Origin: a virus
Lineage: Duplodnaviria; Heunggongvirae; Uroviricota; Caudoviricetes
Length of the DNA: 27,655 bases
Virus record (IMG/VR): IMGVR_UViG_2537562192_000021
Coordinates: 1-27,655 of that record
Direction: 5' to 3' (one strand)
Position numbers: made by a program. Positions 12,201 through 15,200 of the stretch are shown here, in pieces. Numbering within the stretch: the stretch's first letter is position 1; the number at the start of each line of letters is the position of its first letter.

Positions 12201-15200
12201 TAATCTTACAGTCTCAAAGTCATACAGCATGCTGAATTGTTCGAGCGCACCCAGAGCATACAGTTGTAGTTGCTCATTTTGTTCTGCATCAATGCGGACG
12301 CCTTTGCCATATTTCAGGTCGTGGATTTGTAATTCGCTACCAGCAATGATTATGCCGTCGGCAGTTCCGAAAGATTCTTCCACACCCGTTATATGTGAGA
12401 AATCAACACGTTGTTCAACCAATAGTTCATTATTCTGTGCAAGAGTCCAGACCGTATCAACATACCGGCCAACGGCTTCGACCATTTCATCATCCACCTG
12501 TGGGCCAGATGTATCATCAGGATTTTCGCGAAGGGGGTATGAGCCGAGAAACATAGAAACATTGCATCCGGCGTAGTGTTCCGGGTGGCTTTGCCTGTTT
12601 CGTAGAACTTTTTCAGCAAGCGCGTGCGCTGCAGTGCCCTCAATTGCAAAAGTTGTTTCTTTATCCGGTTGTGTGGCCTCCAGCGCCAGACTTCCTGGGC
12701 AGCGCATCCATCGATGCGCTGATGATGGAGAAAGTTGTGCATGAACGTCTGGCATGATTAACCCTCCAGTGCTTTTTCAGCCAGGGTGATTACTTCAGCG
12801 AGATTTTCATCCGTTACTTCACCAAGTTTCCTGGCTCCCTGTTTTTCCAGAATTGCAATAGCTTCTGCCCGGTAACCCCCTTTTGCTAGCTGGAGGATCA
12901 ACCCTTCAGCTTGTTTGCGTAGTGCCGCGAAATCAATTGTATGGTTATCTTTGGCGTCATTATTCTGGCTGGAATTTGCTGCGTCTCTGCGTGCAAATTC
13001 TTCCTGCAGCTGAAGGTACTCAACACGGTTGATCTCGATATGGCCTTTTTTCAGCATCTCGTTCAACTTGCGTAAGGTGTGGAGTTCACTGGCTGCTGTG
13101 CCGGATACATTTTTGACGTAAAACGGCCCCGTGCGTTCTCCATCTTTGTTACTGGCCTTTTTCGGCTTAACTTCATCACGCCCATCTGCAGGTGCATCAA
13201 GTAGCTGCTCGGCAAAAGCACGTCGCTCGCCGATGGTTGGCAGGTCGTCCCAGAACTTAAGAATGTTACGGGACAGGTCCAGGAGAGCAGGTTTAAGCAG
13301 CGCCCTGGCTCGTTTGACGCCCTGTAATGCGCTGTCGAGAGCATCAATCTGAACTACTCGTTTATCGCCTTCAGCATCACGGTAGGCAACAGCACGTTGC
13401 AGCATGTCTTCTGTGATAGGGGTGGCTACCGGGTAGAAACCAGCCAGTGCGATAACGTCGCTGAACTCCAGATCATCCAGTGTCATTGCCGCTGACATGT
13501 TTTCAGCTTCAGTTGCTGTATCCCGACATTCCTGCACTCGTGAAATCGTGTCAGGATGCATAACAATACCTGATGCCATTGTGCGGATAAGACGTTCAAG
13601 CAGCGTATTATGTTGTGCCAGAAGTTGATTATTAAGTTCGAGACTGGTTTCTAAACTCATACTGTGGTCCTCGCTACAAGGAGAATGAAAGTGATGATCA
13701 GACCGAGCGCAGTGGCAACGGCCAGACCGGTCATCAAATCGAAGTTTTTACGGCGATAACGGAGAACATCGCGCCCCGTCAGTCGATGGATGTGTTCAGG
13801 TTTCATCGGTTGTATTCCTTTTTTCATATCGGGGAGCGCGCTGTTGCGAGTGCGCTTTCAGACATAAAAAAGCCCGTCACTTGAGGCGGGCAAAGGCTAC
13901 ACACAGCAATTACATGGATGTCAGTTTTAACCACGTCAGACGAGATGGCTCTCTCTGTACCCCTACAGCGAGAATTCGGCTAATATCTCTTTACCCCTAT
14001 AGTTTTAGAGAGAATTAAGATGTCTGAAGAAAAAGGACTTGTACGGCGTATAACTGAGGCGGCCACTAGTGCTGGTGGTGCTTTGAAAGGTGCTGTTGAT
14101 TTAGCAAAAGAAGTTAATGCGTTGCAGGTGGATTACAATGTTAAAAGTAAAACTATCGATCTACTTGATAAACTAATTGATGCGCGTACTGGACAATTCG
14201 CACTAACGGAGCTTTTGAACGAAGCTAAACAGCGCATTGTTGAACTCGAATCCCTTCTGGAAAAGAAACAGGATTGGGATAGTGAGAAAATGAACTATGA
14301 AATGTACCACCCGATTACCAATACGGTGGTCTATGTACTGAAGCCTACTGACGATCCTGAGTTCAAGCCTCATTATCTTTGTACTACATGCTATGAGTCG
14401 GGTATGAAGTCTATACTTCAATACCATACTTCTAATGCCGCTTATAAAATTCTCAAGTGTCATAAATGCTCCGCTGAATATAAATTTCCCCGAAATATAG
14501 AAGTCAGTGGCAAAATTCCTGCACCGTTACAACCTGCCAGATGATTAGCAGTTCTCTTTGGTGGTGGTGTAGTGGTAGATGCTGAACTTCGGATTGACTC
14601 AATGGACTGATCTTCACCCCACCCCAAAAGGAACTAAGCGCCCCATCGTCGGGGCGTTTCAACTTGCGTGACTTATCAGTTTGTCGCGGTGTTGTCCTCT
14701 ACGCTTACCGTACGCATACGGACTCGGCGCTTACCTCGATCCCATCGGGTGCTATTTCGTTTTGCCAGGAGTACTGCGGCTTACCTGTCACGCGGTTCAG
14801 TTTGTTAAAGAGCGATTACTTATCGCGATCAAAAATACAAGCAAACCTGTAAATGCGTCAACAGGTATTTTGGTAATAAAACGCATTATTAACCTAATTA
14901 CTTGTTTTTACAGGTAATAAAAAAGAGGGCCTAAGCCCTCTTTGTTTAGTAGTCAGGATGCGATTATCTTTTTCTGCGGAATATGCGATGTTCTACCATT
15001 GTCCCTATGATCTTAATTGGTTTTTCCCAGGAGCGACAAATAGGGTAATCAGTATTCAAGGGAACAAGTTCAAAGTCTTCCTCACCCTTAGCGCCAATCC
15101 CTACCGGGCGGTATTTTTTGAACGTTGCTTCGTGGCTACCGTTACATGCCGCAACGAATTCACCAGGAGTAGGGTATACGTCAGTGTCAATTATAACGAT

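Follow-up and report, generated by a model that had tools for sequence, protein, structure and literature searches.

The window analysed here is the whole 27,655-nt stretch of IMG/VR virus record IMGVR_UViG_2537562192_000021, which was recognised as a temperate Shiga toxin 2 (Stx2)-converting prophage from its stx2A/stx2B genes and its phage gene order. Between a plus-strand open reading frame (ORF) and the gene for a cI-like repressor lies a 419-bp gap (14545-14963), described in an earlier note as a non-coding spacer with extra copies of an operator-like motif that might support repressor-mediated looping, or might encode a small RNA. In a BLAST comparison with 5426 complete E. coli genomes, this spacer proved to be a mosaic of three blocks: positions 14545-14626 travel with the left neighbour, positions 14814-14963 travel with the repressor gene, and positions 14637-14813, hereafter element B, are 84-100% conserved whichever flanks they have. 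We read the spacer as the left control region of the phage, composed of an immunity part (14814-14963) and element B, a mobile non-coding cassette of ~177 nt and a candidate RNA leader of the leftward early transcript. The mosaic module structure, the leftward promoter (PL) and the boxA sequence described below did not figure in the earlier note. Coordinates are collected in Table 1.

Element B was present in 105 of the 5426 E. coli genomes and, by pattern scans, in ~100 IMG/VR enterobacterial prophage contigs at 74-100% identity, and also in Citrobacter, Pseudocitrobacter, Trabulsiella and Pluralibacter genomes. The copy in E. coli IAI1 does not differ from that of the window. Among known phages its carriers were four uncharacterised E. 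coli phages only, and the plasmid collection held nothing similar. Neither BLAST nor a covariance model found a second, nutR-like copy at any locus, and no conserved promoter was found inside B on either strand. The cassette occurs with five unrelated left flanks and beside unrelated immunity regions and operators, the mosaic boundary lying immediately 5′ of boxA. A Rac-like lambdoid prophage (exo-bet-gam, P, ren, NinG) carries B ~50 nt downstream of a leftward promoter, with left operators that match that prophage's own right operators (OR). Comparison of the window phage with a lambdoid B carrier revealed no early protein in common; what they share are the lysis genes and a weak helix-turn-helix (HTH) match.

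Table 1. Positions of element B, of the surrounding control signals and of the genes referred to in the text.
Feature	Position	Strand	Remarks
Element B	14637-14813	-	mobile non-coding cassette of ~177 nt; conserved irrespective of neighbours; one copy per locus
boxA	14802-14813	-	GCUCUUUAACAA; predicted unpaired; 5′ edge of B
Structured domain of B	14666-14793	-	multi-helix; RNAalifold and explicit pair counts
Helix P1	14666-14672/14787-14793
Helix P3	14683-14691/14772-14780
Helix P4	14695-14698/14767-14770
Helix P5a	14702-14704/14727-14729
Helix P5b	14708-14712/14717-14721
Helix P6	14733-14740/14744-14750
Hairpin H0	14638-14657	-	CGCCCC-loop-GGGGCG; 3′ edge of B
Leftward promoter PL	14832-14861	-	predicted by sigma-70 promoter scan; -35 TTGACG 14861-14856, 18-nt spacer, -10 TATTTT 14837-14832
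Left operator OL1	14835-14852		ATACAAGCAAACCTGTAA; covers PL spacer and -10; 16/18 identical to OR1 (15666-15683)
Candidate OL2	14859-14876		CAACAGGTATTTTGGTAA; 24 bp from OL1, overlaps PL -35; 7/10 half-site positions; weak call
Motif of the earlier note	14908-14917		TTACAGGTAA; exact position; adjoins cI terminator
Intrinsic terminator of cI-like gene	14922-14943	-	AAAGAGGGC-TTAG-GCCCTCTTT then TTTTTAT; terminator scan
Right operators	15620-15637, 15643-15660 (weak), 15666-15683		cI-cro interval; 23-bp spacing; reference for the left operator
Rightward promoter (PR) -35	15638-15643		TTGACA; sequence reading
Segment A	14545-14636	-	long hairpin; GUUCC-UUUGGGGUG...CACC..CCAAAG-GAAC; conserved stem, variable apex
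Intrinsic terminator tL	13866-13891	-	GCCCGCCUCAAGUGACGGGC then UUUUUU; between cassette slot and first left-operon gene; read and folded
First left-operon gene	13827-13657	-
Accessory 'moron' ORF	14020-14544	+	174 aa; phrog_1244; CxxC...CxxC; opposed to PL transcript
cI-like repressor gene	14964-15593	-	HTH_3 and Peptidase_S24
cro-like HTH gene	15701-15925
Q antiterminator gene	18805-19227		PF06530
tRNA-Arg(tct)	19397-19473
Stx2 A and B subunit genes	19565-20524 and 20537-20800		3′ of Q and tRNA-Arg

On the minus strand, B opens with GCTCTTTAACAA, 18 nt after the PL -10. The 12-nt boxA at this edge is the sole exact copy in the window, where no other boxA with up to two mismatches was found in a relevant place, and it is nearly invariant across 62 distinct B copies. 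It is identical at 12 of 12 positions to an rrn leader sequence that occurs in all 5426 E. coli genomes, at a median of 7 copies per genome and ~100 nt upstream of 16S rRNA, and which is the rrn boxA. The rrn boxA is bound by NusB-NusE (PMC3177189, PMC2800207), and Nus factors can oppose Rho at boxA without the phage protein N (PMC5725501, PMC7665894). In most of the 47 right-flank (immunity) types, the -10 of a leftward promoter ends 18-33 nt before boxA. The rrn boxB (upstream) and the GU-rich rrn boxC (downstream) are absent from B; the sequence that follows boxA (ACUGAACCGCGUGACAGG...) bears no relation to that of the rrn leader; it comprises an 8-nt spacer and then the 5′ strand of the long-range helix P1. 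We also found no local hairpin of the lambda boxB type (~15 nt, with a purine-rich pentaloop), the loops of B being GGG, UGCG and GAUGAU, and no pairing of sites as in nutL/nutR, there being a single B per locus. No N-like family was detected among the small early ORFs tested or in RefSeq annotations of relatives, a search that very small or novel arginine-rich-motif peptides could escape.

The rest of the cassette has the marks of a conserved RNA fold. The 62 distinct B copies align nearly gap-free, with some 1-nt and 2-nt indels, and other copies have 26-nt and 50-nt deletions. Because such indels break the reading frame, B is not protein-coding; two plus-strand ORFs (14664-14852 and 14681-14917) are thereby excluded, and the description of the spacer as non-coding was borne out for its core. 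ARAGORN found no tRNA or tmRNA in the core, despite the tRNA-like look of 14560-14630. The predicted structured domain includes a conserved A-rich internal loop (GGCAAAACGAAAUAGC). In the alignment that we call A2, pairing extends to 96.8% of cells, and both sides have changed in 8 pairs, as compared with 4.3 ± 1.1 in shuffles (none of 500 reached 8) and 4 or fewer in slid controls. When diverged copies were added (alignment A3), 16 of 42 pairs were double-changed versus 8.6 ± 1.7 in shuffles, a result that leans towards structure since this alignment was fitted to the model. Compensatory changes were seen in P1 (pair 35:161, CG/AU/UA), P3 (58:142, UA/CG/AU), P5a (72:97, GC/AU), P5b (81:86, AU/GC) and P6 (104:117, CG/UA). 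In H0 the foot pair covaries (A-U/G-U/G-C), and pair 10:21 has a recurrent change, found in 9 distinct copies, that gives G.U on the minus strand and C.A on the plus strand. A diverged subfamily (L182, L188, L190, L191; 74-81% identity) keeps boxA, P1, P3, P4, the A-rich loop and H0, and has P5 and P6 swapped for unrelated hairpins of similar geometry in the same places. Judged by its sequence, B is a structured non-coding RNA element.

We infer from context that the minus strand would be the acting strand, because the nearly invariant boxA, predicted to be unpaired, stands at its 5′ edge, because a leftward promoter precedes boxA in most right-flank types, and because the annotated downstream genes share that strand. 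With no U tract after H0 in most of the five unrelated left-flank types and no conserved internal promoter, B would be part of a longer transcript. The idea that the spacer encodes a small RNA thus held in part: a conserved structured RNA is indeed present, but it lacks a conserved promoter and terminator of its own and reads as a cis-acting leader.

In relatives of the window phage, the slot held by B may instead be filled by a known antiterminator. Seventy-nine relatives have a left operon with DUF2800; 51 of them carry B, and none of the 28 that do not has a boxA within 6 kb. In 23 of these 28, a different cassette of ~75 nt (CAAGTCGAACGGCGCGACTC...CGGGTCAG) stands directly after the same leftward promoters, while for most of the remaining five the contig does not reach the slot. 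Read in the sense orientation, the ~75-nt cassette has 82% identity with putL of HK022/HK75/O276, and it also matches the putL-like RNA of HK639. The putL RNA acts in cis and, with no need of protein factors, renders RNA polymerase resistant to terminators (PMC9378689). Among all 182 loci, a set in which some contigs are present twice and which does not represent independent phages, B was counted at 152 and putL at 23, and the two never occurred together. No fewer than three promoter/immunity types are combined with B in some phages and with putL in others, the window's own included: its promoter and operator recur in L151, L162 and L163, there ahead of putL. The order of cI, pL and cassette on one strand equals the annotated HK022-type immunity layout of phage O276, in which the -10 ends 16 nt before putL. 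B and putL have no BLAST similarity, and our model R1 misses the putL-carrying loci. As expected of a put site, B lies at the start of the predicted PL transcript and upstream of early-left terminators. Homologues of putL were seen in non-lambdoid prophages of the DUF2800/DNA-polymerase type (L103-L181, for example L151, L162, L163, L146 and L117), and putL-type prophages of the DUF2800 family have the left copy only and no putR.

Downstream of the slot, two further features recur regardless of the cassette. Segment A follows either B or putL in this phage family, with homologues in L151, L146 and L006; its fold z-score is -1.6 in the window and -4.5 in a putL-type relative, and it may be a site of processing or of pausing. 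Further downstream, each cassette is followed by the conserved terminator tL, which was present in every putL relative whose region from slot to gene was inspected (17 of 21 sequence clusters); its homologue in L005 (3719-3700; GCCCGCC...GACGGGC then UUUUUU) was detected by the scan. B thus occupies the position that a known antiterminator has in relatives, in phages that keep the terminator and have no other visible way past it. Inspection by eye also revealed a small terminator-like hairpin (AAAGGCUUCGGGCCUUUU) directly after the cassette, B or putL (L005 at ~3965-3995; L163 and L138 after putL); it has a U run of 4 and was not flagged by the scan.

The immunity part of the spacer carries the signals expected of a repressed leftward promoter. 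The motif recurrence reported in the earlier note is real and longer than had been claimed, as AAACCTGTAA occurs exactly at both 15674-15683 and 14843-14852 and the surrounding 18-mers, ATACAAGCAAACCTGTAA and TTACAAGTAAACCTGTAA, are identical at 16 of 18 positions; the longer form CAAGCAAACCTGTAA lies at 14838-14852, not at 14841-14855. Motif scans gave an excess of matches: TTACA-N8-TGTAA with up to one mismatch matched the window 4 times versus 0.81 expected, with three of the matches in the immunity region, and the 18-bp operator with up to three mismatches matched twice versus 0.02 expected by chance. The OL1 core, TACAAG(C/T)AAACCTGTAA, is kept among relatives while its flanks vary, and relatives that share the immunity type retain CAACAGGTATTnTGGTAA of candidate OL2. 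A 17-nt exact word, TACAAGTAAACCTGTAA, is common to the left site of relative A34 (L002) and the region with its cI-cro interval; across immunity types, the longest word shared by left and right operator regions has a mean length of 9.8 versus 8.3, which discriminates weakly. Because the operator copies overlap the leftward promoter, the first role of the spacer operator would be in a left operator/promoter pair, and the sequence supports reading 14832-14876 as such an OL/PL pair, repressing leftward early transcription. As in lambda, an OR-like site covers an early promoter beside the repressor gene, and it travels with that gene. Looping between OL and OR, whose centres are ~831 bp apart, is possible.

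Of the distal operators that had been proposed, one is thus upheld, as an 18-bp copy over a promoter. The second, TTACAGGTAA, does adjoin the cI terminator, at 14908-14917 rather than 14907-14916, but it misfits the 5-N8-5 frame of TTACA-N8-TGTAA and is not conserved, varying (ACAGG/ACGGG/AAGGG; GTAA/GCAA/-AA) in relatives whose repressors are almost identical. It is probably a chance occurrence and not an operator. The cI terminator itself travels with the immunity module in relatives.

Taken together, these observations suggest the following sequence of events. In a lysogen, the cI-like repressor bound to OL1/OL2 would silence PL, as it would PR. Upon induction, PL would fire from its predicted start near 14825, and the first ~190 nt of its transcript would comprise a leader of ~11 nt, a single-stranded boxA, the ~130-nt P1/P3-P6 domain and H0. 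NusB-NusE(S10) would bind boxA on the nascent RNA, and the folded domain might touch RNA polymerase in the manner of put, recruit a host factor or serve as a processing site, this being the least certain step. The boxA complex and the folded domain would then convert the elongation complex to a termination-resistant form, which would travel through an untranslated stretch of ~1 kb, part of it antisense to the accessory ORF, and then through tL. Read-through would express the replication/recombination operon that lies on the minus strand to the left of the repressor gene (the 49/56-aa and 300-aa genes, DUF2800, DUF2815, DNA polymerase and others). B seems to need no phage protein; action through host factors is suggested by the lack of an N-like family, by the lack of a shared early protein and by independence from immunity type, and would suit a boxA of rrn strength. 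We consider it likely that B works in cis as a leader of the PL transcript, and we hold with moderate confidence the narrower view that it is a cis-acting processive antitermination leader of the Nus/boxA type. More tentatively, B may represent a third kind of phage processive-antitermination RNA, a self-contained, horizontally mobile cassette in which an rrn-strength boxA, recruiting NusB/E and the rrn-type machinery of the host, is joined to a ~130-nt fold; it would make RNA polymerase resistant to termination with no phage protein involved, and in function putL and B could replace each other in both Shiga-toxin and lambdoid prophages.

Several points weigh against antitermination by B or against the assignment of its strand. 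Natural deletions remove P5 (26 nt; L189 6467-6623 and L199 1318-1474) or P3′/P4′/P6 (50 nt; L186 4963-5095), with end-points in three direct GGTAAGC(G/C) repeats, so the full fold is not always kept; it may be non-essential, or those prophages may be defective. Neither pairing nor alifold energies fix the strand, and the share of cells that can pair is 95.4% for plus-strand RNA against 93.9% for minus-strand RNA. The mean fold z-score is -1.25 for the plus strand and -1.30 for the minus strand, and the window's own B folds better on the plus strand (z = -2.5) than on the minus strand (+0.1). Copies of the lambdoid type favour the minus strand, and lineage-specific wobble pairs exist on each strand; the strand bias of stop-to-stop ORFs downstream of B is confounded by shadow ORFs. 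In addition, boxA can serve purposes besides antitermination, for example translational repression at suhB (PMC5725501), no partner is assigned to the folded domain, and both the strength of tL and the lack of another promoter for the left operon were judged from sequence.

Alternatively, B could be the precursor of a stable trans-acting small RNA (sRNA), cut from the PL transcript and serving a regulatory or anti-defence function, with boxA guarding only against Rho-dependent polarity. A discrete, mobile and highly conserved structured module with sharp borders would suit such a role, as would unpaired conserved stretches such as GGCAAAACGAAAUAGC, which could act as a seed or bind a protein; there are known examples of non-coding transcripts protected by boxA, among them arrays of clustered regularly interspaced short palindromic repeats (CRISPR; PMC7665894), and the window has other phage sRNAs. 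However, B lacks a conserved promoter that would be its own, H0 is mostly not followed by a U-tract terminator, B excludes and is excluded by a purely cis-acting element, putL, in the same slot, and an sRNA would leave B-carrying phages without a visible way past tL. We regard this explanation as unlikely.

The fold values raise the question of whether the functional RNA is instead that of the plus strand, for instance a 3′ untranslated region (UTR) element or sRNA of the 14020-14544 gene with H0 as its terminator. The window copy beats shuffles on that strand (z = -2.5), frequent G.U pairs form on the plus strand only (52:148, 59:141, 33:163), and H0 followed by UUUCAAC could be a weak terminator. 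Yet other lineages have wobbles on the minus strand only (10:21, 51:149, 55:145) and better minus-strand folds, B occurs without an upstream plus-strand gene (L005, L101), and there is no conserved plus-strand promoter ahead of it but rather five unrelated left flanks. Moreover, boxA would be meaningless on the plus strand and is nevertheless the best-conserved unpaired stretch, which makes a plus-strand function improbable.

It is also very improbable that the operator copy is the only functional content of the spacer (OL-OR looping) and that the rest is conserved only as a linker at which mosaic modules recombine. The match of the operator copy is indeed significant, and mosaic junctions lie at both edges of B, as would be expected if conserved DNA promotes exchange, but a passive linker would not have compensatory changes that preserve helices, and the boxA is exact and B is also found beside unrelated immunity regions and operators. 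That B acts as DNA, as a replication origin, a single-strand initiation site or a set of primase-helicase sites, is hardly credible: there are three direct GCTTACC repeats (in the 14704, 14729 and 14778 regions) and the phage encodes its own primase-helicase and DNA polymerase, but the repeats vary, with the variation compensated by their pairing partners (72:97, GC/AU), they are deletion end-points and not conserved sites, and B occurs in a lambdoid prophage with O/P-type replication genes and no such primase.

Comparison with catalogued RNAs gave no family for B. Rfam 15 had no gathering-level match in the spacer and none in the core even at E ≤ 10, and the best sub-threshold matches cover the cI terminator only. 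The annotated putL/putR of phage O276 (L200) and the putL of L151 were equally unmatched, so that Rfam 15 has low power for antiterminator RNAs and put RNAs appear to lack an Rfam family. We found no description of B in the searchable literature, which does not cover King et al. (2011) on newly discovered antiterminator RNAs, where a prior mention is possible; B is probably a previously undescribed device. The mEpimmI phages (PMC11893012) were rejected as a parallel, since they form another group, in which an N-like Gp17 accompanies nut sites of the classical kind.

Beyond the spacer, the window agrees with the short cI-cro-primase-Q-stx layout of the 'Eru10' Stx-phage type (PMC8951638), with a 739-aa primase/helicase gene after the cro-like gene. 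The accessory ORF on the other side of the spacer is missing or swapped in relatives: L001 has a 189-aa ORF, L005 has none, and L101 has leftward HNH and small genes. Just 3′ of stxB and before the lysis genes is a full-length Rfam match to STnc100 (20888-21096, plus strand, 183.6 bits). In the left arm, a C4 antisense RNA (10561-10644, minus strand, 70.6 bits) adjoins isrK (10670-10743, minus strand, 50.9 bits), the pair forming a c4-like RNA immunity module of the P1/P7 type, and a match to sRNA-Xcc1 lies at 6736-6824 (minus strand; 62.5 bits, gathering score 53). The yfhL gene adjoins relatives of the window prophage.

Early antitermination decides whether an induced temperate phage expresses its replication and recombination genes, and in Stx phages toxin production is driven by induction. 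To our knowledge, the well-characterised RNA solutions of enterobacterial phages number just two, namely nut with the N protein and put alone. If our reading of B as an antitermination leader is true, the natural swap between B and putL is an experiment that would show by what means N can be replaced by Nus factors and RNA structure; the reading would also account for expression of the left operon in 'Eru10'-type Stx2 phages, which have no N, and would offer a compact new tool for terminator-proof transcription. The PL-proximal position is itself a slot for exchangeable cassettes, where more antiterminator RNAs can be sought.

Among known systems, putL of HK022 (also HK75, O276 and HK639) has the position most like that of B, immediately after a repressor-controlled PL and ahead of the terminators and the early left operon. 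In both cases PL follows cI on the same strand, and the two cassettes are interchangeable in otherwise near-identical phages. In the window family, putL is likewise a single left-arm copy with no evident phage protein partner (PMC9378689). They differ in that putL is ~70 nt long, consists of two stem-loops, begins at the transcription start and has no boxA, whereas B has ~177 nt, six helices and a perfect boxA, which would imply an involvement of Nus factors that put does not need. The OL/PL region resembles that of lambda, with OR-like operators over a leftward promoter beside the repressor gene, but the window has one strong and one weak site, and its PL comes directly after cI as in HK022, with no rex-like genes between.

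Lambda nutL is like B in standing just after PL/OL, in having a boxA, a short spacer and an RNA structure, and in lying upstream of a terminator that gates the left operon. B nonetheless fails the definition of a lambda nut site because it lacks a 15-nt boxB whose pentaloop is rich in purines, an N homologue and a nutR counterpart; its boxA is of the strong rrn form as opposed to the lambda CGCUCUUA, and its structured part is ~10 times larger. With the E. coli rrn leader (boxB-boxA-boxC; NusA/B/E/G, SuhB and S4) B shares the identical 12-nt boxA and an expected independence of phage protein, while the flanks of boxA are unrelated and the context of B is a phage early operon; that the spacer search matched only 105 of 5426 E. 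coli genomes confirms that B does not match the rrn operons. Leaders with boxA alone, such as those of Salmonella CRISPR arrays and the suhB 5′ UTR, also have boxA close to the start of a long RNA that is not translated, and there Nus factors oppose Rho or modulate its action (PMC7665894, PMC5725501), but they have no large conserved RNA domain attached and are not mobile cassettes. B resembles putL in position and nut/rrn signals in its boxA but is a member of neither family, and it may be classed as a cis-acting antitermination leader.

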